Shown here: piece after piece, positions 32,886 to 44,748 of the stretch
Position numbering within the stretch: the stretch's first letter is position 1
Layout of the letters: the number at the start of each line of letters is the position of its first letter
Assembly: GCA_965227295.1 (NCBI GenBank)
Contig: OZ245742.1
Coordinates: forward strand, 96,001 to 160,000
From: Leptonemataceae bacterium
GTDB lineage: Bacteria; Spirochaetota; Leptospiria; Leptospirales; Leptonemataceae
Direction: 5' to 3'
DNA: 64,000 nucleotides
Translations under genes and position numbers: made by a program
The notes under the pieces: generated by a model
The model's input: only the letters and a program-made list of their open reading frames with translations
The model's database searches: none
Told to the model about the DNA's origin: nothing

Positions 32886-33011
32886 ACTCCGAGGACCGAG
32901 GTACCGAGAGAAGAAAAAATTGATTCAACAAGCAAACAAAAGCGCTCATAACAAGAACGCGTTCTCAAACGAAAACCTCCCCAAAAACCTCGGTCCCTCG
33001 GTCCTCGGAGT
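32886..33011. repeat. REP-like palindrome, copy 2 (same arms, A-rich longer spacer)
   Basis: actccgaggaccgaggtaccgag...ctcggtccctcggtcctcggagt between convergent stops. Confidence 0.85.
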
Positions 33012-33676
33012 CACTTCTCTTCGCTTTTCTCCGCCTCACCCATACGCTGCTCGCGTGCCTGGCGGTGACCGAGTTCGCTGTCGATGCGCTGGGCGATTTG
33101 ATAGGCGAAGTCGTCGTAGTTCGAGGAGTCGACGAGCACGTCCTCGGAATCCCAGATCAAACTCATGGACGCCGCGTACTTCGTACGATAGCGCCAGTCC
33201 CAGGCGCGGCCGGGAGACTTGCGCACGGTGATGAGGTGCTCGCCGGTCTCCACATCCACCGCGGTGATGGTACAGGTATCGATGAGCTTCGAATGACCGC
33301 GGCCCTCGGCGTCACGGTAGCTTAACATTTGTCCGGTGCCGGTTAAGATCAAGTCCGCACCGGTTAAGCGGCCGATTTCGCTGCGGGTCTGCGGATCCAC
33401 GAGACCGGACTCCGAGAACTCCTGCTCGCGCAGAATGTTCTTCAGCGCCGCTCGTTCCACCTGGATGAAGTTTCCGGTGCGGGCCAGATGCAGGCCCAGG
33501 GCCTGGGAGAACTCGTCGCCCCAGTCGGCGCCTTTGATGAAAAACGGCAGGACCGCAATCTTCAGCGGTTCGCCGGTGTCGGAGTACTTGAGCGACTCCT
33601 GGACCTGGAGATCCACGGAGGAACAGCCTGCGGCGAGAGTCAGGGCGGCAACAATCGAGGCGAAAAATCGAATCAT
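33011..33676 (-). CDS. CsgG/HfaB family lipoprotein
   Basis: Lipobox AAGC; IAVLPF, VERAALKNILREQ..SGLVD...IGRLTGADLILTG. Confidence 0.85.
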   Translation of the reverse strand: MIRFFASIVAALTLAAGCSSVDLQVQESLKYSDTGEPLKIAVLPFFIKGADWGDEFSQALGLHLARTGNFIQVERAALKNILREQEFSESGLVDPQTRSEIGRLTGADLILTGTGQMLSYRDAEGRGHSKLIDTCTITAVDVETGEHLITVRKSPGRAWDWRYRTKYAASMSLIWDSEDVLVDSSNYDDFAYQIAQRIDSELGHRQAREQRMGEAEKSEEK

Positions 33677-33733
33677 CTTACTAACAGATCGCGTGATGTA
33701 TGAGACGCCGAAGCCCGGCGCGGCGTTCGGTGA

Positions 33734-34255
33734 TTATGTTTTCTTTTTGGAACCGAAGAGTTTGACCGGCAACGAGCGAAACAGATGGTACACGCCCAGG
33801 CCGAGCAAAATACCGAAGAACGCGTACACCGCGCCTTCGATGGACAGCGGTACGCCCGGCGTGAAGTCGTAGTATTTCATGAGGCCGGCGTCGAAGTTCG
33901 CGAAGAACACGAACGGTTTCGTCCACACACTGGCGTCGCCCAGGGCGGCGTGGGCCGCGGCGTAGTCCTCGTAGCGTTCGACGGCGGACTGCATGGCGCG
34001 GCCGGTGGCCTGGAAGTCCGGGTCGGTACTGCGCAGGTGTTTATCGATGAGTTCTTCCAGGCTCTTGCCGACGAGCTGCGCCTGGGCACGGAACACTTCT
34101 AAGTTACGCGCGGCCTCGGCGAACGCGCCGCTCAGCGCGACGTAGTATTGTTTCATGAACTCCGGGAACTGACTGAGCACCAGGGCGCCGGCGACGCTGA
34201 AGATCCGATCCAGCAGCGTGTCGATGCTGCGACCGATGTAACGGACTACGAACAT
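33734..34255 (-). CDS. DUF2937 family membrane protein
   Basis: SQFPEFMKQY..LSG...EA motif; N- and C-terminal TM segments. Confidence 0.8.
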   Translation of the reverse strand: MFVVRYIGRSIDTLLDRIFSVAGALVLSQFPEFMKQYYVALSGAFAEAARNLEVFRAQAQLVGKSLEELIDKHLRSTDPDFQATGRAMQSAVERYEDYAAAHAALGDASVWTKPFVFFANFDAGLMKYYDFTPGVPLSIEGAVYAFFGILLGLGVYHLFRSLPVKLFGSKKKT

Positions 34256-34393: not shown

Positions 34394-35314
34394 TCACGGC
34401 TCCACGGGACTACCGGCTTCGAAGCGACCTTCCTGCACGGTGCCATCTTTGTAGATGAGTTTTCCCTGGCCGTGAAACTCGCCGTTTTCGAACTGACCCT
34501 CGTAGCGTAGATAACGAATAAACGTAGACGGATAGAGAATCACACCGTATCCGTGGTACTCGCCGTTTTGAAATTCGCCCGTGTACCGCCGGCCGTCGCG
34601 ATAGGCGTACGTGCCGCGACCATGCGGCAGGCCGTCCTGAAACTCGCCGGTGTAGATGTCCCCGCCGGCCTCGGGCTTTTTGAGTGACCCGGAGTACATG
34701 ACGCCCTCACGCATCTCACCGTCCCGCCATTCACCGACGAAGCGCCGGCCGTCCGGCCACACGCAGAGCCCGCGTCCGTGCATAGAGTTGTCGCGAAACT
34801 CACCGATATATCGAAACTCGAACGGGTCCAGCGACCCCTCTAACACGCGCTCATAGAAACCTACGCCCGCGAAGGATCCGTCGCGCATTTGTCCGTAGTA
34901 GTGCCGCCCGTCCTCGGGATTGTAGTACTCGCCGTAGCCGTCGCGTTCATTGTCTTCCCACGTCCCGGCGTAGTATTCGCCGGATTCTTCGCCCAGAAAT
35001 CCGTAGGCGCCGAAGCCCTCGGCTTTATCGTTCGTATACTGGCCGGCATAACGTGATTGTTGCGACGGTAGTTCGTAGATGCCGTAGCCGTCGCGTTCCC
35101 AGCCGGTGAACGTTCCGGTGTAGATGTCGCCCTCGGGATCGACAAGAACGCCGTGAACCGGCGCGCCGTCTTCGAAGATGGCGCGGAGGACGGAGCCGTC
35201 CGCGTACTCGTAGACGCCCTGGCCGTTGGTGCAGTTGCCCTCGGTACACTCGCCGGCGGGGGGGATAGTGCAGGAGAGAACGAGAAAGATGAAAACGGTG
35301 GTAGTAAGGCGCAT
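34394..35314 (-). CDS. MORN-repeat lipoprotein
   Basis: Many Y.G.f.dg..hG.G.y repeats; CTEGNCTNGQG cap; lipobox VLSC. Confidence 0.9.
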   Translation of the reverse strand: MRLTTTVFIFLVLSCTIPPAGECTEGNCTNGQGVYEYADGSVLRAIFEDGAPVHGVLVDPEGDIYTGTFTGWERDGYGIYELPSQQSRYAGQYTNDKAEGFGAYGFLGEESGEYYAGTWEDNERDGYGEYYNPEDGRHYYGQMRDGSFAGVGFYERVLEGSLDPFEFRYIGEFRDNSMHGRGLCVWPDGRRFVGEWRDGEMREGVMYSGSLKKPEAGGDIYTGEFQDGLPHGRGTYAYRDGRRYTGEFQNGEYHGYGVILYPSTFIRYLRYEGQFENGEFHGQGKLIYKDGTVQEGRFEAGSPVEP

Positions 35315-35388
35315 GAGTTGAGGTTCTAGACTGGTGGCTCTTGCGATTTCTTCGAGTGACATACCGGCTGTGACAATGGCCCAATCCA

Positions 35389-36039
35389 TCAGCGATCTGA
35401 AAGAAGAATAACTTTCTCCTCAATCATTTCAGGCACAAGTTCTGTATCCGCCATCAAATCAGTTTTCCACATACGACGTTCACCAAACCCCGTGAAAAAA
35501 GTCCCAAAGCACAAGCCCGCTCCGGTTTCCGTTGCCAGGTGTAGACCGCAATGAGCGTCATACTGGTCTACCGGCCTGAAATCGTGCCGGACTGTGATAA
35601 GTTCTACGCTGGTAATTTTTTTTCCAATTAAGCCCCGAAGGTATTCGTCCCCGGCGGAAGGATATCCCGACAACGATACCTTACGCGAACTCCCGACCAA
35701 CTTCTTCTTCATCATAGCCTGCAGCAACGTCGGCGTCGGACTCCAATGAATGATCGTTGTCAGAAGGATCAAAAAGTGGTACAGCGCAACTTCATAGGTC
35801 TCCGTCTTCACAACGAGCATGTGCGGTAGATCCCAGAGTAAACCATCTTTTCGCCCACTGCTTTCCTGGAACTTGTCGAGTTCGACGTCGACGTCAAGCG
35901 TCCCTCCGATGCGGGAGAGATCCACAATGCGCTGGCCTCGCAAACGTCCGAGTTCTTGCTGCACCTCGCGTAGTTTTCTCCAGCCGAGCCTTTGCCATTC
36001 AGGCAAAGCGCTGAGCGCCCAGTCTAGATCAAGCTCCAT
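35389..36039 (-). CDS. hypothetical protein, candidate immunity protein of the upstream toxin
   Basis: Starts 10 bp after the toxin stop on the same strand; AT-richer codon usage like the toxin tip. Confidence 0.65.
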   Translation of the reverse strand: MELDLDWALSALPEWQRLGWRKLREVQQELGRLRGQRIVDLSRIGGTLDVDVELDKFQESSGRKDGLLWDLPHMLVVKTETYEVALYHFLILLTTIIHWSPTPTLLQAMMKKKLVGSSRKVSLSGYPSAGDEYLRGLIGKKITSVELITVRHDFRPVDQYDAHCGLHLATETGAGLCFGTFFTGFGERRMWKTDLMADTELVPEMIEEKVILLSDR

Positions 36040-36048
36040 CGTCGTCCA

Positions 36049-39000
36049 TTATCTCGGGAACCCCATTTCGTCCAGAAACGCGTTGATGCTGATGACGTTA
36101 CCACTTTTTCCTGGTTCGAACCCGGCTGCCATCTCCAGAGGGTCGCTAAGAATAAATTTCCTTTGCTTCTCGTCGTAGAATCCCTGAAGATCTTGAACCG
36201 TCAAACCTTCTTTATCAAACGAATCTCGAAGATCTTTCAGACTTTCCAGGAATTTCTCTCTGGCCTCGGGGGTGGGTAGCTTCGCACTATCCTCAAAAAA
36301 TTCCTTCAAACTATGTTTACTGAATTTAAGGTGTGTAGCCGGATCGACGTAGTCCATAACATATCCATAGCAGGTTTTTGCAGGGATACTCGTCGGGCAT
36401 GGAGTCGATCTCGCGACGGCCTCAAAGTTAACGACTTCTATGTTTTTCATCCCCTCCACATGATTACGAAGTTTCTTGAGATTCGCTATTTCCTCGCCGA
36501 TCAGCCGTAGCGCGTCGTCTTCTGCCAGATACAGTGGATTCTTGACCACGCCGAGAACTTTGCCCGGTTGCCCTTCAATCTTATAGACGTTCTTATAATG
36601 GCCATTGCCCTGCCATCCGGCATCGGAAACAGTACCCCGAAGTTTCTTGAGGGTGATATTTATTCCGCTGGCGAGACATCGGATACATCCAGAACTACTA
36701 CTGCTATTCTGATTATGCACCAACCACGCCGCGTCCCCCGCGAAGTAGTTGTGATCCCCTGCGACCTCGATGTTGTAGATCGGCTCACTTCGTTCCAGTT
36801 GCCGCGCCTTGATGGACTGAATCGCGGCAAGTTCACCGTCGATGGGCCGCAGGCGATCGCCGACCGTAAGGTCTTTCGCGGCCACCCACACGCCGCGTTC
36901 TTCCATCCAGAACGGGTGGTTATCCGTAACGGTGAGCGTATCTTCGCCGACACGGATCTCGTACCAAACGAGCGTAATGTCGCGGAAGACGTGCGTAACC
37001 TTCTGCTCACGCGGGGAGCCGGTGGCGGTGTCATAAGCGATGACGCTGTCGCCGACTTCCAGGTCGTCAATCTTGCGCTGCCCGTCCGGCGTTAAGATCG
37101 GCGTACCGGAAATTAAGCAACTCGAACAGGACTTGCACGGCAACACGCCGATCTTATCCAGTTTCGCCCGGCCTTTCTCGACGATCTTGCCGGCGACCGC
37201 GCCCACGCCTTTCGCGGCGGCGCCTTCGAGATAGTTCCCGATGCGCGTGCCGCTGGCCATACTCCAGGCACCCATGACGGCGGTGAACGGATCGCCCTCG
37301 CGTGTGCCGGTAACCAAATCGGCGACGCCGACGAAGCGGCCGAGCACCTGCCCGATCGCCGGGTTCAGATTGATCAACGTGCCCAGGATCGGATCGCCGC
37401 CGAGGTCGGAGGTCGACTTCATGAACGAAAAGAATTTCTCGGAATCCAGCGGATCATTCAGGAAGTTCGTAAGTTCATCGCGAAACTCGCGGACACGCTC
37501 GGCCAGTTCACCCGGTGCATCGGTAATGGCCTTCAGGATCGACCGGCCGACTTCCACCGCGTACTCAAGGTATTCATCAACGAGACCTTGTTCCCGCTCG
37601 CTCTGCCTGGAATTCTCGTAACCGGCAAGACGATCGTCCACGGCGATGTTTTCTTCCGCTTCCGCCTTGAGAGCTTCCCGCAATTGTCGCTGCAACGCGA
37701 TGCGCTCGGTTTGCATCGTCTGAAAGTGCTGTTGATATTTCAGGATGTTGCGGCCGACGGCGGACTCGTGTAGAAAATCCGTAACTACGGCGTCGAATTC
37801 CCTCGGTTTTCCGTTATCCCCGTTGATGGACGCTTCCACGCGCCAGGTAAACAGCGTATCGCTGAGGCCCGCGTCATTGAGCAATCGCTCATAATCCTCG
37901 AGCGCAGTATCCTGAATTTCATCTTTCGAGAGAAGGCAACCTACCTTTGCCCGGCACAGCTCCGCGGCGAGATCCTCCCTGGCGTCGCGCACGTATTCCA
38001 GAAGCGCGGGCTCGGGTTCCCGGCCTTCTTGCCTGGCCCTGGCGATATCCCTTTCTTTTTTCTGAATAAGATCTACGAAAGAACCGAACGGCATTACACC
38101 GCCGCTCAGGTAGCGGTCGGTGTGCTCTTCGCTGTAAGCAACATCCTGGATGTATTTGTAGAACTCCGGCTCGTACGTATCCTTACCCGGAGACACTTGA
38201 TTGGACTGACTCGCGCCCGCCGCCCGATAGATATCGAAGTGCGCAATGCCGACCTCGCTTTCATCGAAGATGCGATCATAACAGGCCATCTGCGCGAGCA
38301 GAGCCTCCGATCCCGCACCGGACTGAGACCGGCATTCCTGCATCACACGTTCGATGTTTGCAAGATTGTCCGGCGTAACCTCGTAAGTTTCGCGCAGTTG
38401 CTGTTTGTAATTTTCCGATCCGCGTTCCGTAACCGGGCTACCGCCGCCGGCTACTTCACCGCCTTCCGGTGGTTCCACGACGATGTCGCCGGGATTGTAG
38501 CCGCCGTCAGTAGCGCCGCCGTCGGAATCGCCGTTACCAAACCAATCATCCCAAACACCGGCCACGTCGTCCGGCACGCTACCGAACGGCTCATCCCCGA
38601 ACGGGTCCAGGTCCACGTGATCGCCGGGATTCTTGAACAGATCTTCCAGTTCGTCGATCTGCTTCCCCAAATCTCCGAGCTGCCGGAACTCGTCGGCTCG
38701 CTGCTCCAGATCTTCCGCGACCTTATCCAGGTACGGACTCGACAACCCGTCCCGATCGTTATAATCGAACAGGTCCTCTTTCTTTCCGGACAGGTTTGCG
38801 CCCCAGCCGTCTTTCGAATCATAACCGAACGAAAGATCGCCGACCTTTTGCTGAAAACCACCGGACCAGCCGTCCTGCGCATCGTAACCGGCAGTATAGC
38901 CGGCGCCGTCGAAGCTCGCGGACAAACCATTCGTCTCATCCCAGCGAATCTTACCGTCGCCGGTAAGAAGATCGTGTACACCTTCGCCGCCCGTGGAGAA

Positions 39001-42000
39001 ATCCATCTGGGCACCGAAGCCGGCGCGTTCATTGTACGTGAGCGCACCGTTCACATTGCCGACGTCGTTCTCACCTTCGAACGTAAGCGCGCCGGTGAGG
39101 CCGGCATTCTCATTCCAGCCGAGCCCTAACTGTCCCGTGCCGACACCACCGGCGTCGAGGCCGTAGCCCAGGTTCACCCCGAACCCCGTCTCATCATTAT
39201 AACTCAGCCCGACTTTCACACCGCCGCTGGAATAACCGGCGTTGATCGAATTGCCACCGCGCTCGCTGACGTTAAAACCGATGCTCAGTCCGTCGCCCTG
39301 GCCGAGTCGACCGTACGCCCCCGCGCCGTTCTTATCGCTGTAACTGATGCCGACGCTGCCGTAATCACCGCCGACGCCGATGCTCGCGCCGAAGCCGTCC
39401 GCGTGCGTATACGAAACACTCGCATCAATGCCGACGAGCTGCGTCGCCATCAACGCCGTGTCGGCCATGCGCGCCACCGAGCCGAGTTCACCGCCTTCGT
39501 AGTAACCCTTCTGTGCCTGATAGCCGTACCACAGACCGGGATTGTTCGTCATCATGGACGCGCTGAAGGCGGTCGCATCCATCAACATGGGATTGTCGTA
39601 AAACGTATCGGCGAGCGGTTGGGCGATGCCCGGGCCGAACATATCGTTCGAAGCCGCACCGACAAGGCCGCCCATCGCCGCGCCGGCCAGCATGCCGATG
39701 GGACCGAGGGCCAGGCCGGCCATGGCGCCGAGGCCGCCGCCCATGGTCATGGACGCCATGGAGTTCGCGAGTTTACCCGTGGGACCGTTGCGCGCCGCCT
39801 TCGCGGCCATCTTCTTCTTAAGTTCACCTGTAAGTAAGCTACCGAATCCTTTGATGCCGGTAATGCGATCGATCTCGCTGCCCACCACCTGCCAGGCGTA
39901 ACCCTGCATCGCTTCTTCGACACTCGCGCCACCGAGCAACGCCGACACGAAACCCGCGGGAATGCCGGTCATCGTTTCCCAGTGCGCGGCGATATCGCCC
40001 ATGATCTGATTCTTCGCGTAATCAATGAAGGCGTCGCCGGCGCTCATGCCCCCGGCCATGGAAGTCATGAGCGACTTCAACATCGAAAACAGTTGCGCCT
40101 GATCTTGCTTCGCCTGGGACGAGAGCTTTTCGCCGAGTTGTTTCGAAGCGTGCGCCGTATTCATGCGCGCCTGCGCCGCGCTGAGCCAGTTCGCGGCGCC
40201 GTCGTAGAAAGCCTGCTTCACGGCCTCGCGTTCCGCCTGCACGGCGCCGAAGTCCCACTGTTCAAAAAGATCCCCGCCGGAAACGAGTTTCAGCGCTTCC
40301 GGCGGGGCGATGCGTACGATCTGCTCTCGCTGCACGGAGTCGTAGCCCGTGGTGCTCGTCAGGTCGCCGCCGTTCCAGGCGACCTGTCCGGTATCCACGC
40401 TGCGGTGCGCCACGACCGTGCCGTCGTCTAAAATCTTCACAGAAAAGTTCATGCGCGCCTGGCGTTCGAGGCGCTGTTGCATCTCCTCGTCGGTTTCCAG
40501 GCGCGTCGCCGAGGCGTTCTCCCAACCCGCCGGACGCAGCAACACCGGCACGTCCTCGTACGGATTGTACTCCACCTCCTGGCGCTCGTTCTGCACGTAG
40601 TCGCGTGACAGTATGGAATAAGCTTGATCGATCAACTGATCGCGCAGCTGTTCGGCTTCGTCGGCGACGGTGCGCGCGTAGGTGAAATTCAAGAGGCCGT
40701 TCAGTGAAGTATTCAGAGAGCCGGCCGCATCCTTGAGCAGACTCATGTCCGGCAGATTCGAACCGGGCTCGGTTGCCAGGGAATCGGCGTGTTCGCGCAG
40801 GCCGGTTGCGTCGCTGCTAATTTTCACTCGCTGAACATTAGCGGATTGCGCGGCGGTGACGAGTTGCGCCAGCTCCTGCGGCAGGCCCGCGTCCGAATCC
40901 TCGAGCGCCAGGGCCTTCGCCGCGCGGCGATCTTCGACATCGTCCCAGCGCGCCGAAGCATGCAAGAAATCCCGGCGTGTATCCTCGAACCAGGCGTCCC
41001 GCTGCGCCGTGATTTCGCTGCGACGCTGCGCATATTCCGCCGTCGCCTGAGAACGTACAGCGTCGGCCTCGGCCTGCCAGGCGGAATAATTGGCCGCGTA
41101 AGAACTGCTCTGCGCTTCCCAGGTTTGCAGCGCGGGCAGCAAATCATCCTGCCACTGCGTGATGACCGGATTCAGATCGTCGACGTACCCCTGCCAGGTG
41201 TCGGCGTTCGCCCGGGCGTTGTTGTCCGTGAGAACGTATGTGACCTCGAACTGAATGAACTGCTCCGGAACGAGATAGTACGAGACCGGATACGACGGAT
41301 CGCCGCACGGATCCAGGCGATTGTAACGAGTGATGCCGAAACAGCCGAACACCGTATGCATGAATGCGCTGTAGCGCTGGTCTCGCGTTTCGCCGATCTG
41401 GCGAAAGTAGATACCGGCGTCGGAGTACGAAAAGACGTTCGTCCCCGCATCGCTGGAGAGCGGCGGGTATGAGGGAGACCAACCGGCCGCGTAAGTACTG
41501 CTGATGGCAATGTCCAGGTGATCGCCGTAACCGCCCAACGAACGCAAGAAATCCAGCAACGGTTGCCGGTTGCCTTTCAGGTCCTCGACGATCGTATACG
41601 CTTCCTGGTACTCCCAGGGCATCACGTTCGGATCGCCCGCGGCCTTGTAGTACGACTGCGCGGCGTCCACGTTCACCCGATCGGCCCAGACCTGGCTCGT
41701 CGCCTCGGCCTCGGTGCGCCGGGTTTCCATGTAGCTCAGAATATTCGCGGCCACGGCGGACAGCGGATCGCCGTCGGCCAGGGCGCCGCGGACGTCACCG
41801 ATCAATTGCGCTAAGTCCTGCCCGGCGGCATTTAAGGTCGAGCCGTCCACGTCGCAATGATTGTCGGAGTCGCAGCTTTCCTCGTGAAACAGACCGCTGC
41901 TGTTCAGAAAAACTTCCATCTGATCCACCGTCGCCGCGATGGAATTGCGGACGTCCTGTTCGAGCTGCTGCATCACGCTCAGGTTTTCTTCGAACAGAGC

Positions 42001-42684
42001 TGCCTGACGTTCCAGTTCGGCCAGGGTGGATTGATAGTCCGCGTCGAGGGCGTTCAGTGCGTCGGCGAATTCGCCCAGACCGGCGCTCGCATCCGCCCGA
42101 AAGCGTTCTTCCCAGGCCCGACGCAGTTCTATTAACTCATCTTCCGTAAGACTTAGCGAGGTTTCGTCTTGAGCGCGGCGTTCTTCGCGCTCCGCCTCCG
42201 TAAGCGCGGCCTGCGCATCGTCACCGGCGCTTTGCTCTTGTTGCGCGGCCAGATCGTTCAGAAAGGCGGCGCGCTCCGCGGCGAAGTAAGCGTCGGCTTC
42301 CAGTTCCCAGGCGGCGAAGGCGCTGCCCTTTTGGACGTCCAGTTCCGCGCGCAGATAGTCGCGATAGGCGTCCACGTCGTGCACGGCATCCGAGGCACTG
42401 ACGCTCGCCAGGTAACCGTCAATCTCGGCGTCGACGGCGGCTTCCCACTCCGCCGCGAGGACGATGCGCCCTTCCCGGACAATCGCCTCCCAATCCCTGA
42501 TCGAAGAACTGACGGCGGCCCGGCCGCCCAGGCTGGAAAGGCCGCCGGGGTCGGTCGGCGGCGGTGTCAGTTCCGGAAGCGGCTGGGCCGGCAAACGCGA
42601 GAACGGGGCAACGGTCCAGGCGAGTGTCGTAACGACCAGCACCGCGGCCATCCATCGTTTGTGAAGAGTCCGGTTCTTGTTCAT
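36049..42684 (-). CDS. TIGR04388-like giant protein with polymorphic-toxin Hint domain and C-terminal kinase-like toxin
   Basis: Signal peptide; DWEAIVREG..L.AEWE N-terminal pattern; coiled coils; Gly-rich hydrophobic and beta-repeat regions; Hint CLISGT...YNIEVAGDHNYFAG..LVHN (36712-37119); kinase motifs in the last 220 aa. Confidence 0.88.
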   Translation of the reverse strand: MNKNRTLHKRWMAAVLVVTTLAWTVAPFSRLPAQPLPELTPPPTDPGGLSSLGGRAAVSSSIRDWEAIVREGRIVLAAEWEAAVDAEIDGYLASVSASDAVHDVDAYRDYLRAELDVQKGSAFAAWELEADAYFAAERAAFLNDLAAQQEQSAGDDAQAALTEAEREERRAQDETSLSLTEDELIELRRAWEERFRADASAGLGEFADALNALDADYQSTLAELERQAALFEENLSVMQQLEQDVRNSIAATVDQMEVFLNSSGLFHEESCDSDNHCDVDGSTLNAAGQDLAQLIGDVRGALADGDPLSAVAANILSYMETRRTEAEATSQVWADRVNVDAAQSYYKAAGDPNVMPWEYQEAYTIVEDLKGNRQPLLDFLRSLGGYGDHLDIAISSTYAAGWSPSYPPLSSDAGTNVFSYSDAGIYFRQIGETRDQRYSAFMHTVFGCFGITRYNRLDPCGDPSYPVSYYLVPEQFIQFEVTYVLTDNNARANADTWQGYVDDLNPVITQWQDDLLPALQTWEAQSSSYAANYSAWQAEADAVRSQATAEYAQRRSEITAQRDAWFEDTRRDFLHASARWDDVEDRRAAKALALEDSDAGLPQELAQLVTAAQSANVQRVKISSDATGLREHADSLATEPGSNLPDMSLLKDAAGSLNTSLNGLLNFTYARTVADEAEQLRDQLIDQAYSILSRDYVQNERQEVEYNPYEDVPVLLRPAGWENASATRLETDEEMQQRLERQARMNFSVKILDDGTVVAHRSVDTGQVAWNGGDLTSTTGYDSVQREQIVRIAPPEALKLVSGGDLFEQWDFGAVQAEREAVKQAFYDGAANWLSAAQARMNTAHASKQLGEKLSSQAKQDQAQLFSMLKSLMTSMAGGMSAGDAFIDYAKNQIMGDIAAHWETMTGIPAGFVSALLGGASVEEAMQGYAWQVVGSEIDRITGIKGFGSLLTGELKKKMAAKAARNGPTGKLANSMASMTMGGGLGAMAGLALGPIGMLAGAAMGGLVGAASNDMFGPGIAQPLADTFYDNPMLMDATAFSASMMTNNPGLWYGYQAQKGYYEGGELGSVARMADTALMATQLVGIDASVSYTHADGFGASIGVGGDYGSVGISYSDKNGAGAYGRLGQGDGLSIGFNVSERGGNSINAGYSSGGVKVGLSYNDETGFGVNLGYGLDAGGVGTGQLGLGWNENAGLTGALTFEGENDVGNVNGALTYNERAGFGAQMDFSTGGEGVHDLLTGDGKIRWDETNGLSASFDGAGYTAGYDAQDGWSGGFQQKVGDLSFGYDSKDGWGANLSGKKEDLFDYNDRDGLSSPYLDKVAEDLEQRADEFRQLGDLGKQIDELEDLFKNPGDHVDLDPFGDEPFGSVPDDVAGVWDDWFGNGDSDGGATDGGYNPGDIVVEPPEGGEVAGGGSPVTERGSENYKQQLRETYEVTPDNLANIERVMQECRSQSGAGSEALLAQMACYDRIFDESEVGIAHFDIYRAAGASQSNQVSPGKDTYEPEFYKYIQDVAYSEEHTDRYLSGGVMPFGSFVDLIQKKERDIARARQEGREPEPALLEYVRDAREDLAAELCRAKVGCLLSKDEIQDTALEDYERLLNDAGLSDTLFTWRVEASINGDNGKPREFDAVVTDFLHESAVGRNILKYQQHFQTMQTERIALQRQLREALKAEAEENIAVDDRLAGYENSRQSEREQGLVDEYLEYAVEVGRSILKAITDAPGELAERVREFRDELTNFLNDPLDSEKFFSFMKSTSDLGGDPILGTLINLNPAIGQVLGRFVGVADLVTGTREGDPFTAVMGAWSMASGTRIGNYLEGAAAKGVGAVAGKIVEKGRAKLDKIGVLPCKSCSSCLISGTPILTPDGQRKIDDLEVGDSVIAYDTATGSPREQKVTHVFRDITLVWYEIRVGEDTLTVTDNHPFWMEERGVWVAAKDLTVGDRLRPIDGELAAIQSIKARQLERSEPIYNIEVAGDHNYFAGDAAWLVHNQNSSSSSGCIRCLASGINITLKKLRGTVSDAGWQGNGHYKNVYKIEGQPGKVLGVVKNPLYLAEDDALRLIGEEIANLKKLRNHVEGMKNIEVVNFEAVARSTPCPTSIPAKTCYGYVMDYVDPATHLKFSKHSLKEFFEDSAKLPTPEAREKFLESLKDLRDSFDKEGLTVQDLQGFYDEKQRKFILSDPLEMAAGFEPGKSGNVISINAFLDEMGFPR

Positions 42685-42786: not shown

Positions 42787-43821
42787 TCAGCCGTCTGCGG
42801 ACGATGAAACCCGCCGCCCGGGACTCTCCCCGTACCAACGACGATAGGCGCGGTGAAACGAACTGCGCTCCGAGAAACCGAGCAAAAGCGCCGTCTCTTC
42901 CTGGGGAATGCCGAGTTCGCGCAGATACAGGTCGCTCAAGTCCCGACGTAAATCGTCGAGAATTTCTTTGAACGAAGTGCTCCGCTCGCGCAGTTTGCGA
43001 TAGAGCGTAACACGCGACATCTGCAACTCCTGAGCAATGAACTCCACGCCGCCTTCGCCGTTAGGCAGGGCGTCGAGCAAAAGACTACGGATGCGCTGGA
43101 CGAGATCCCGGTTGCCGCTCAAATTCTCCGCCAGTTGTCGCGCACGGCCGCTCAGCAGTTTCTTCAGATAATCGTTCGGTGCGGGGTTCGTGCGATCCAG
43201 GATCGCGGCATCGAAGAGGATCTCGTTCGCATCGCAGCCGAAGTGTACGGGCACGCCGAAGAACTCTTCAAAGTCCGCGGCCCACTTCGGCTCCGGATAC
43301 CGGAAGCGCACCTCCAGGGGCGGGACGCGATCCCGCACGAGGCCCTCGGCCCAGGTCACGGCGGCGGCCAGACTGCGGTCCACGCTCCAGTGCGTATAGT
43401 AGCGCGCGTGAACATTTTCGTAGCGGTAGCGAATGACGCCGTCGACTACGTCATAACGAATGCGATCAACTTCGTTGGTGAGACCGAAAAAACGCACGCC
43501 GACGTTCAGCGCCTCGCGCACGGTTTCGCAGGACAGAACAAAGTTTGCGAGAACGCCCATGGACTTCGGGCGCATGAGCCGGCCCACTTTCAGCGCGCAC
43601 AACGGATCTCCGCTCTGTTCGTAGAGAAGATTCCACAGACGCACGGCTTTTTCCGCACCGATGCGTCCGTCCAGACGCTCGAAGTCCGTCGCCGCAATGT
43701 TGCAGCGTTCTTCAATGAATTCAGGCTGCGCCCCGGCTTCGAGGAGCGCGTCGTAAACATCCAGGAGCTGCGCGGCCGAAACACTGAGTTCGTCCGTCCC
43801 GGACACGGAATCGTCCATCAC
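42787..43821 (-). CDS. AraC family transcriptional regulator (OruR/VqsM-like)
   Basis: MSRVTLYRKL..TSFKEILDDLR, ALLLGFSERSSFHRAYRRWYGESP. Confidence 0.95.
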   Translation of the reverse strand: MMDDSVSGTDELSVSAAQLLDVYDALLEAGAQPEFIEERCNIAATDFERLDGRIGAEKAVRLWNLLYEQSGDPLCALKVGRLMRPKSMGVLANFVLSCETVREALNVGVRFFGLTNEVDRIRYDVVDGVIRYRYENVHARYYTHWSVDRSLAAAVTWAEGLVRDRVPPLEVRFRYPEPKWAADFEEFFGVPVHFGCDANEILFDAAILDRTNPAPNDYLKKLLSGRARQLAENLSGNRDLVQRIRSLLLDALPNGEGGVEFIAQELQMSRVTLYRKLRERSTSFKEILDDLRRDLSDLYLRELGIPQEETALLLGFSERSSFHRAYRRWYGESPGRRVSSSADG

Positions 43822-43872: not shown

Positions 43873-44748
43873 TTACTTGAGATGTTTTAACTTGTCCGGA
43901 TTCAACATGCTGTACACCGCGCCGATCCTCTCCCCGTCCGTCTCGAACCACAGCGCACAATAGACGCGGCCGTCCGTGCGCAACACCACGCCCGGGCAGC
44001 CGTTAATGATGGCGGCGTCGCCGGAAACGTTCGGTGGTTGCATGGAGTAGACGCCCACAAAAAACTTCGCGGCGTTTTCGAAACCCGTAATAATGTTCCG
44101 GGCCGCGTTGACCTTGCCGCCGCCGTCCGTGGCCACTCTAACATCATCTGAAAGGATATTTGCAAACGCGCCGACCTCACCGCTCTGACAGGCCGCAAGA
44201 AAGGCCTCCAACAATCGCCGACCCTCCTCCGCCCCGGGCCGCACGTGTTTGCGTCGCCGCTTCGCCACGGCCTGGCGCGCGCGATGCAGAATTTGCCGGC
44301 AGTTCTCCGGAGTTTTCTCCACCACCTCCGCAATCTCGTCGAAGGGCGCGTCGAAACTCTCGCGCAACAGATACACGGCGCGTTCCACCGGCGACAGCGC
44401 CTCCAGCACGATCAAAAAAGCCGCCGACAGATTGTCCCGCGTCTCTAACATATTTTCAGGGGAACTTTGATCCACCGAGACCACCAGGGGCTCGGGCAAC
44501 CAGGTCCCCGGATATACCTCCCGCTGCGATCGGGCCGAACGCAAGACGTCGATGCAGCGCCGTGTTACGATCGTGCGCAGGAAACCCGCCGGATTGCGAA
44601 CGGCCGCCGTATCCTGTTCCAGCCAGCTCACGCAGGCATCCTGCAAGACGTCCTCGGCCTCCATGACGCTGCCGAGCATACGATAGGCCACGCCGAATAA
44701 CATCGGCCGGTGTTCCGTGAATACCTTTGAGCTCATTTTTTGCACCAC
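43873..44748 (-). CDS. sigJ: ECF41 (SigJ-like) RNA polymerase sigma factor with SnoaL-like C-terminus
   Basis: FGVAYRMLGS..AEDVLQD, YPGTWLPEP, DGGGK, NPDKL signature motifs. Confidence 0.93.
   Translation of the reverse strand: MVQKMSSKVFTEHRPMLFGVAYRMLGSVMEAEDVLQDACVSWLEQDTAAVRNPAGFLRTIVTRRCIDVLRSARSQREVYPGTWLPEPLVVSVDQSSPENMLETRDNLSAAFLIVLEALSPVERAVYLLRESFDAPFDEIAEVVEKTPENCRQILHRARQAVAKRRRKHVRPGAEEGRRLLEAFLAACQSGEVGAFANILSDDVRVATDGGGKVNAARNIITGFENAAKFFVGVYSMQPPNVSGDAAIINGCPGVVLRTDGRVYCALWFETDGERIGAVYSMLNPDKLKHLK

Follow-up and report, generated by a model that had tools for sequence, protein, structure and literature searches.

Do the unexplained "longest proteins" of Leptospira-type spirochaetes serve as carriers of swappable toxins and, if so, what would the giant protein encoded here deliver? 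The DNA in question (hereafter the window) is a stretch of 64,000 nucleotides (nt) from a Leptonemataceae bacterium (GCA_965227295.1, contig OZ245742.1, positions 96,001-160,000), drawn from a genome (G000) that forms a single contig of 5.94 Mb; coordinates without a prefix are those of the window. Its minus strand holds three head-to-tail genes, which encode a giant of 2211 amino acids (aa), a 216-aa protein (P0002, encoded at 35389-36039) and a 331-aa MORN-repeat protein. An original prediction for this locus had described a polymorphic toxin whose C-terminal tip, a HopBF1-like kinase, is released by a Hint domain and paired with an immunity gene. In our analysis, the locus is best read as a three-gene polymorphic-toxin operon with a Hint-released HopBF1-family kinase tip and an immunity gene, a reading to which we give a probability of about 0.74.

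Carrier, Hint module and gene order

The giant starts with a hydrophobic leader, MNKNRTLHKRWMAAVLVVTTLAWTVAPF (read by eye from the translation), and scores 254.2 bits (E=2.3e-75) against TIGR04388 (Lepto_longest), for which the curated NCBI cut-off is 45. The matches form three stretches within its first 920 residues, which a six-frame search recovers in one frame at 157.5, 75 and 36.3 bits and which cover model positions 4-312, 457-672 and 750-923 of 1693 (i.e., about half of the model). TIGR04388 is typed as a "subfamily," and its C-terminal half is replaced in the giant. Near the C-terminus, residues 1863-1991 match PT-HINT (PF07591) at E=1e-13 and 52.1 bits, against a gathering cut-off of 27.7. 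The Hint module as a whole measures 136 aa, running from Cys1856 (CLISGTP) to Asn1991 (LVHN), with TDNH at 1920-1923 and the terminal pair H1990-N1991. Both family calls and the module length had been predicted, as had a tip and following open reading frame (ORF) richer in AT than the stalk: the tip has a GC content of 0.476 and the P0002 gene one of 0.515, as compared with 0.610 in the stalk, 0.598 in the Hint module, 0.596 in the third gene and 0.598 in the genome.

Because the residue directly after the Hint module, Gln1992, offers no nucleophile, C-terminal cleavage without splicing is the expected outcome, and the module would cut after Asn1991 if its chemistry follows what is known of inteins and Hint domains. 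As for the gene order, the TAA stop of the giant is separated by 9 nt from the ATG of the P0002 gene, and the stop of the latter overlaps the start of the third gene as TGATG. Judged by this spacer and this overlap, the giant, P0002 and MORN genes are translationally coupled. A consensus scan of the region found no sigma-70-like promoter inside it and no excess of terminator-like sites over shuffled sequence.

Variable ends on TIGR04388 giants

If the giant were a toxin carrier, its relatives should differ at their ends, and they do. A six-frame search of G000 with TIGR04388 gives 24 matches in 14 open frames of 1142-2652 aa. Over their N-terminal 900-1400 residues the other giants are 25-57% identical to that of the window, and the last few hundred residues of the 14 are mutually unrelated, a group with kinase-like tips excepted. 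PT-HINT is present in 10 of the 14 (a scan of the last 499 residues alone shows it in seven of these), and in 12 the GC content of the last 220 aa lies at least 0.04 below that of the stalk. Specifically, the window giant and the paralog at 5097948 (paralogs are named here by their position in G000) are 60-85% identical over the Hint module, and this value drops to 17-33% directly after LVHN. Other ends include a DUF6973 (E=3.4e-13), a sub-threshold Pfam match to ParB_N and, by eye, HExxH strings in two giants. Five giants, each encoded on the minus strand, lie inside 63 kb (G000:C1:5063716-5126838), and three of these have kinase tips; between the giant at 5070344 and the next there is only the candidate immunity gene of the former.

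The arrangement extends beyond this genome. Among 400 other genomes sampled from the phylum, TIGR04388 was found in 58 of 75 from the sister family and in 2 of 50 from one other family (both below the cut-off), with none in the rest, and it occurs together with PT-HINT in 14 open frames of 10 sister-family genomes (paired by contig and frame length). The kinase tip family is in turn carried by an unrelated 587-aa protein in G439, i.e., on a carrier other than the TIGR04388 giants. Owing to this architecture, a role of TIGR04388 proteins as carriers of Hint-released tips, the delivery platform that had been proposed, is well supported, and we have high confidence that the window encodes a polymorphic-toxin giant composed of TIGR04388, PT-HINT and a variable tip.

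One could instead suppose that no toxin system exists here: the giant would be a structural or adhesive surface protein, the kinase would regulate the physiology of the producer, and the neighboring ORF would encode its substrate or regulator. TIGR04388 proteins are indeed without demonstrated function (a full-text search on "TIGR04388" returned no paper), and the conserved MORN lipoprotein gene has no usual role in toxin systems. Yet PT-HINT is characteristic of polymorphic toxins (PMC3482391; PMC4751964; here and below, papers cited by accession or DOI are represented by parts of their texts, and statements drawn from them are limited to those parts), the 14 paralogs end in unrelated, AT-rich C-termini, the same tip recurs on the unrelated 587-aa carrier, and in related genomes a truncated tip remnant stands beside an intact partner gene and a partner gene occurs as an orphan. 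We regard a locus without toxin function as highly improbable.

Several side observations concern the wider set of carriers. The order to which the window's genome belongs also holds Leptospira-type TIGR04388 proteins, and the window lineage is a high-GC member of it. Just downstream of the giant at 2291012-2296600, three more PT-HINT frames of 558, 682 and 592 aa (G000:C1:2281199-2288978) look like an array of orphan Hint-plus-tip cassettes. A further PT-HINT (G000:C1:3134218-3134595) lies in a 2462-aa frame that is not among the TIGR04388 matches, possibly a fifteenth giant with a different carrier. Directly behind the Hint His-Asn, the paralogs and the giant of the same-genus genome G426 have different residues (Q, D, C, Y, K or G); Cys occupies this position only in the giant at 5119621, where a splicing-type step is possible in principle.

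Relationship of the tip to HopBF1

What, then, is the 220-aa tip of the window giant? All kinase motifs quoted in the original prediction are found in it: GNGHYKNVY at 2026-2034, VLGVVK at 2043-2048, EEIANL at 2064-2069, YVMDYV at 2108-2113, VQDLQG at 2163-2168 and FILSDP at 2177-2182. Related ends occur on three further G000 giants (at 5070344, 5097948 and 5119621), with pairwise blastp E-values of 9e-8, 1.8e-6 and 0.004 in a database of four. Within the window's bacterial family, 4 of 42 genomes hold members of the tip family, in total six full copies and one fragment; those outside G000 are a Hint-linked tip on a 2287-aa frame in G426, the 587-aa protein in G439 and a 68-aa truncated remnant in G428. 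A hidden Markov model (HMM) of the five other tips recovers the window tip at E=1.9e-12 among 36,355 G000 frames, with no other frame below a domain E of 1. The comparison among relatives that had been proposed as a check finds tips that are far from invariant: the other full copies are 19-25% identical to the window tip, and across the six only three columns never change, K40, D174 and D190 (i.e., K2031, D2165 and D2181 of the giant).

The evidence that places this family comes from profile searches of the PDB, with profiles built without any HopBF1 information. The six-tip profile matches two different HopBF1 sequences, chains 8hoe_A (E=1.5e-6) and 6pwd_A (6pwg; E=1.8e-6), aligning profile positions 43-217 with chain residues 21-174 of 189, and a five-tip profile that omits the window tip matches the HopBF1 chains at E=1.3e-8 and 1.9e-8, with the next match at 0.12. 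The match spans about 155 of the 189 residues with both lobes in register, and the HopBF1 chains are the only significant PDB matches of the profile. In the alignment, G-x-G-x-x-K-x-V-[YF] falls on the HopBF1 Gly loop and [IV]-E-D-L-Q-x-x-V-D-...-G-...-I-[ND]-D-P on its catalytic and metal-binding stretch (HopBF1 catalytic residues being assigned from motif positions), and a HopBF1 lysine occupies the aligned position of the Gly-loop lysine of the tip. On the strength of these profile matches the tip very probably belongs to the HopBF1 family, and the HopBF1-like kinase of the original prediction is upheld to that extent.

Predicted structure and embeddings point, more weakly and independently, the same way. 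In the Foldseek comparison that had been suggested earlier, all 44 listed rows are protein kinases, though the query was a low-confidence model (the better of two, built with four sequences) and the best E is only 2.2e-3. When the same low-confidence model is compared with 48,161 representative chains in VIA-align, which works independently of Foldseek, the matches include OspG (4q5h_A), with 158 of 169 residues and Z 6.1, and HopBF1 (6pwd_A), with 142 of 176 and Z 5.1. To judge by their titles, some 45 of the 50 listed rows are kinase-like, and APH and fructosamine-kinase chains reach Z 5.0-5.3. The closest language-model neighbors of the window tip that carry a name are SteC, OspG (0.93), YrbL-PhoP_reg and Kinase-PolyVal, and those of the 5070344 tip (26% identical to the window tip) are YrbL-PhoP_reg, APH, Phage_T7_kinase and Kinase-PolyVal.

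A number of results weigh against reading the tip as a Hint-released HopBF1-family kinase. No single tip sequence reaches HopBF1, and neither does the four-tip profile. Pfam and NCBIfam kinase models gave nothing for the window tip at E<=10 (hmmscan; Pkinase, APH, OspG_kinase, RIO1, Kdo, YrbL-PhoP_reg and Kinase-PolyVal are the clan models without a match, HMMER's filters discarding most matches above about E 0.1), and APH appeared at E=0.19 in one of the four G000 tips. Two of those four attach weakly: in three-sequence leave-one-out searches the 5097948 tip was missed and the 5119621 tip came back at E=0.66. The six-tip profile matched none of the 400 other phylum genomes (a sample outside the window's bacterial family), and the single tip, searched against 1.84 billion representatives, found just itself and no true relative. 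The lysine of VLGVVK (the beta-3 position) and the glutamate of EEIANL (alpha-C) vary within the family, and one member has Thr in place of the second Gly of GxG. The AlphaFold models of the tip are poor (mean pLDDT, i.e., predicted local distance difference test, 35.8 for the tip alone and 41.3 with four sequences), and all VIA-align scores of the tip lie below the Z of 8 that is the tool's safe level. Finally, one giant with a kinase tip, that at 5070344, has no Hint.

Other searches for relatives added little. Word-indexed searches with the four-tip alignment found nothing among longer or similar-length proteins, and a single-tip pattern scan of genome contigs matched 113 patterns and confirmed no relative. 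A 1533-aa WD40-repeat protein (E=2.2e-4 over six short stretches), the one other match of the single tip among the 1.84 billion representatives, was judged from its sequence to be spurious. The four-tip profile also gave a weak match (E=4.5e-4, 52 positions) to a 402-aa frame of the distant phylum genome G230 (G230:C4:31610-31774), which is absent with the six-tip profile.

Proposed active site and chemistry

The original prediction had assigned the beta-3 lysine to VLGVVK and the alpha-C glutamate to EEIANL, and this part of it did not hold: neither residue is conserved, and the invariant lysine sits inside the Gly loop. In its local motifs the tip presumably resembles WNK1. WNK kinases likewise have their catalytic lysine outside beta-3, in the Gly loop or beta-2; the analogy concerns only how the active site is laid out, and no homology is claimed beyond the kinase fold. 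In WNK1, Lys233 of beta-2 replaces the usual beta-3 lysine and supports full activity (PMC4718504).

These substitutions raise the question of whether the fold does something other than protein phosphorylation, e.g., as a small-molecule phosphotransferase (APH-like), as an AMPylase or glutamylase (SelO/SidJ-like) or as an inactive binding module. The variable beta-3 Lys and alpha-C Glu would fit such a role, and so would the appearance of APH among the weak matches (E=0.19; Z 5.0-5.3, with fructosamine kinases; a language-model neighbor) and the fact that the kinase fold hosts other reactions, SidJ being a pseudokinase with polyglutamylase activity (PMC9950578). On the other hand, the sole significant sequence relative, HopBF1, is a proven protein kinase (PMC9950578), the WNK1 precedent shows that a Gly-loop or beta-2 lysine can sustain full activity (PMC4718504), and, against an inactive module, the only invariant residues are the three expected for phosphotransfer. 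We consider other chemistry decidedly unlikely and the tip probably an active protein kinase.

The candidate immunity gene

The candidate for a protective gene is the ORF behind the tip. A P0002-family gene directly follows every intact kinase tip, whether this tip sits on a Hint-linked giant, on the Hint-less giant or on the 587-aa protein. In G000, the ORFs after the other three kinase tips encode 212-220 aa and are linked by blastp at 2e-8, 9e-5 and 6e-4 (P0002 itself matches the one at 5097308 at only 0.23); at E<=1, a profile built from all four ORFs matches the genome at these four places and nowhere else, each directly behind a kinase tip, and an HMM of seven relatives recovers P0002 at E=2.2e-19. 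Extended to the 42 genomes of the bacterial family, the search with an eight-member profile gives 10 places, distributed over 5 genomes. Outside G000, there is one copy directly after the tip in G426, with stop and start overlapping; three copies stand in tandem after the tip of the 587-aa carrier in G439 (L033:1983-3329), the third with an in-frame TAA; G428 has one intact gene of 211 aa whose start is overlapped by the truncated tip remnant; and G434 has an orphan copy with no kinase tip adjacent. Tip and partner both diverge to about 20% identity, as compared with 60-85% in the flanking Hint and 52% in the MORN protein.

Strict linkage to the tip in three carrier contexts, joint divergence, and the existence of further copies that are tandem, orphaned or next to a remnant are the marks of toxin-immunity cassettes. 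By eye, P0002 has no leader peptide, which fits a partner of an ATP-dependent enzyme that acts in the cytoplasm. We therefore find good grounds in the original proposal of an immunity gene, with function drawn from linkage: the product of 35389-36039 likely confers immunity, and its family would constitute a previously undescribed immunity family, one for which there is no Pfam model. P0002 has no relative in Pfam, NCBIfam or the PDB, a word-index search with P0002 alone returned only itself, and PDB profile searches with its family gave nothing meaningful. Prediction of a complex of tip and P0002 scored 0.00 in two runs and gave no answer. The first ORFs downstream of the other giants lack a Pfam match in 6 of 8 cases, the remaining two encoding a TPR and an RDD protein, with no known immunity family among them.

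Two further details concern the loci outside G000. The first 409 residues of the G439 carrier (L033:223-1986) have no Pfam match. In G428, where remnant and partner gene together span L034:1477-2315, the remnant retains only the DLQ...DP part, with a stop before it, and upstream lie ORFs of 327 and 156 aa that may be another toxin-immunity pair.

Proposed mechanism and target

Taken together, the locus suggests the following course of events. The giant would be exported via its N-terminal leader and displayed or released by the TIGR04388 stalk, after which PT-HINT, acting through Cys1856 and the His-Asn pair ending at 1991, would cut behind Asn1991 and free the 220-aa tip. The tip, as a minimal HopBF1-family kinase with a proposed active site of K2031, D2165 and D2181, would work with ATP inside its target cell and phosphorylate some essential protein there; as with HopBF1, this may be an ATPase of the HSP90/GHKL type. 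In the producer and its kin, the cytoplasmic product of 35389-36039 would bind and block the cognate tip, a role suggested by the strict linkage, the tandem copies and the one orphan. Tip and immunity gene would behave as an AT-rich cassette that diverges far faster than its flanks and moves on interchangeable carriers.

Which cells would be the target? HopBF1 both phosphorylates eukaryotic HSP90 and blocks its ATPase (PMC9950578; PMC8150971), and this is the sole substrate known from those texts. The immunity gene, conversely, argues that the tip harms bacterial cells. In the producer itself, the HSP90 Pfam model PF00183 has no match in G000 and likewise none in the same-genus G433, as against 71 of 81 genomes of the order, including the same-genus G426. 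The HtpG of G426, used as a query in G000, finds only a 616-aa protein at 26% identity (G000:C1:5216872-5218722; L046:1465-3315), which has a GHKL ATPase domain (HATPase_c_3) and scores 15.9 bits against HSP90, where the cut-off is 24.4. The idea that the producer lacks HSP90 entirely was dropped on account of this divergent, HSP90-like protein. Considering the HopBF1 precedent, the immunity gene and the divergent HSP90 together, the target could be a bacterial HSP90-like or GHKL ATPase, another protein, or the eukaryotic HSP90 of grazers; we lean slightly toward a bacterial target, and hold an HSP90-type target to be possible and somewhat doubtful.

The known substrate and the missing canonical HtpG both count against an interbacterial toxin, and they are the starting point for an alternative in which the system is a weapon against eukaryotes: the tip would hit the HSP90 of protist grazers or of a host, and the product of 35389-36039 would be an inhibitor or chaperone that silences the kinase in the producer before export. 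Beyond the restriction of known HopBF1 activity to eukaryotic HSP90 (PMC9950578; PMC8150971), the significant homology of the tip to HopBF1 and the absence of a canonical HtpG from the producer, this alternative can point to the PT8 tip of Leptospiraceae, which is reportedly toxic to fungi as well as to Bacillus subtilis (bioRxiv 10.1101/2021.10.19.465003). However, a partner gene that occurs in tandem, next to a tip remnant and on its own as an orphan is expected under selection against incoming toxins, not of a dedicated chaperone; the co-divergence of tip and partner to about 20%, with the flanking Hint and MORN at 52-85%, is the pattern of an arms race among kin; and an inhibitor on the producer side is needed only where the kinase harms a bacterial cell. 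We judge an anti-eukaryote weapon unlikely and retain the polymorphic toxin with its immunity gene as the better account.

A broader conjecture, which we offer tentatively and rate as rather unlikely, is that HopBF1-type kinases are at root interbacterial toxin cassettes, which in this lineage arrest or kill neighboring bacteria by phosphorylation in the ATP pocket of a bacterial GHKL ATPase (HtpG, or an essential one such as GyrB, ParE or MutL), with a dedicated and rapidly evolving immunity family to restrain them. In that case HopBF1, as a type III effector of plant and animal pathogens, would be a domesticated offshoot, and the loss or divergence of HtpG in the producer would be part of the conflict.

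Comparison with known systems

HopBF1 (Pseudomonas syringae, Ewingella americana; PDB 6pwd, 6pwg, 8hoe) and the tip are alike in length (about 190-220 aa) and probably in the minimal kinase fold known for HopBF1 (PMC9950578), and they share the motifs GxGxxKxV[FY], [IV]xDLQ and hydrophobic-x-DP at the same spacing. In the texts at hand HopBF1 is a stand-alone type III effector, injected into plant or animal cells, and no immunity gene is described for it. In contrast, the window tip is the C-terminal part of a 2211-aa Sec-type giant, stands behind a PT-HINT and has an immunity-like gene as its partner. A minimal fold that lacks the activation segment, which the tip probably shares, is also that of OspG/NleH and other minimal effector kinases (PF22303) and of RIO and Bud32. 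Among full-length structural matches OspG ranks first, though the model used is of low confidence, and at E<=10 the tip does not match OspG_kinase in sequence. A title-level search, which did not cover the original HopBF1 description, found no literature linking HopBF1 with polymorphic toxins.

With the PT-HINT systems of Zhang et al. (2012; PMC3482391) the locus shares a conserved carrier, a Hint, a variable toxin, immunity genes that may be adjacent, orphan or in tandem, and AT-rich cassettes. It differs from the systems set out in that text in its carrier, which is TIGR04388 and not RHS, filamentous hemagglutinin or LXG, in its HopBF1-family toxin and in an immunity family without a Pfam model. 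The 300,000 characters of PMC3482391 that were covered contain no mention of "Leptospira." For related systems that use the PVC secretion system for export, the same text describes a toxin domain that is a kinase, of the lantibiotic-synthetase type. Polymorphic toxins rarely carry a kinase, this one type being what the covered text of the 2012 census mentions (PMC3482391).

Nearer relatives of the producer offer a partial precedent for the window giant. LA_3725 of L. interrogans, which is large and combines an N-terminal transmembrane segment with PT-HINT, has been read as a polymorphic toxin (PMC4751964), and PT8 is a validated toxin tip specific to Leptospiraceae (bioRxiv 10.1101/2021.10.19.465003). 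A search of 75 sister-family genomes gave no kinase tip. The window's genome has 14 giant paralogs. PT-HINT polymorphic toxins are already known, and what is new is the combination of a HopBF1-family tip on a TIGR04388 carrier with PT-HINT and a candidate immunity family that had not been described.

If this reading is correct, it has consequences on several levels. HopBF1 is known, in the sources cited above, only as an injected effector that disables eukaryotic HSP90, and an exchangeable tip with its own immunity gene would extend the family to bacterial cells. The P0002 family would represent a specific protein inhibitor of a minimal kinase, and the "longest proteins" of Leptospira-type spirochaetes would gain a role as carriers of swappable toxins. 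The four natural pairs of candidate toxin and immunity gene in one genome would make the question of the substrate directly testable.

The MORN gene, feature coordinates and neighboring genes

The third gene of the operon recurs with the first two. G000 has 12 MORN-like frames, and the three most similar to that of the window (52%, 37% and 37% identity) stand directly behind the candidate immunity genes of the giants at 5097948 and 5119621. In G426, too, a MORN gene follows tip and partner; none accompanies the Hint-less giant at 5070344. The protein carries a lipobox-like LSC (by eye). Hint-kinase loci conserve its gene as their third, and the protein may act as a second immunity factor, a receptor or an export helper.

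Table 1. Features of the toxin-like locus in the window and, where given, their positions in G000.
Feature	Position	Strand	Evidence or assignment
Giant ORF P0001, 2211 aa	36049-42684	-	Hydrophobic leader, TIGR04388 stalk, PT-HINT and kinase-like tip
Best TIGR04388 stretch, residues 26-337	41674-42609 (G000:C1:137674-138609)	-	Profile match
Further TIGR04388 stretches	40594-41265 (G000:C1:136594-137265), 39925-40428 (G000:C1:135925-136428)	-	
PT-HINT, residues 1856-1991	36712-37119	-	PF07591, E=1e-13
C-terminal tip P0004, 220 aa	36052-36711	-	Probable HopBF1-family minimal protein-kinase-like domain
Lys2031 codon (tip K40), Gly loop GNGHYK, proposed ATP-binding lysine	36592-36594	-	In 6 of 6 tips; aligned to HopBF1 G-A-G-S-Q-K
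Asp2165 codon (tip D174), VQDLQG, proposed catalytic aspartate	36190-36192	-	In 6 of 6 tips; aligned to HopBF1 EDLQ
Asp2181 codon (tip D190), FILSDP, proposed metal-binding aspartate (DFG equivalent)	36142-36144	-	In 6 of 6 tips; aligned to HopBF1 NDP
P0002, 216 aa, candidate immunity protein	35389-36039	-	
MORN-repeat protein, 331 aa, lipobox-like LSC	34394-35389	-	MORN, E=3.6e-34

Beyond the three genes, the same strand carries an AraC-type regulator (42787-43821) and a sigma factor of the ECF-like kind (43873-44748) upstream of the giant. Downstream of the MORN gene (33011-34255) lie genes for a DUF2937 protein and a CsgG/LpoB-like protein.

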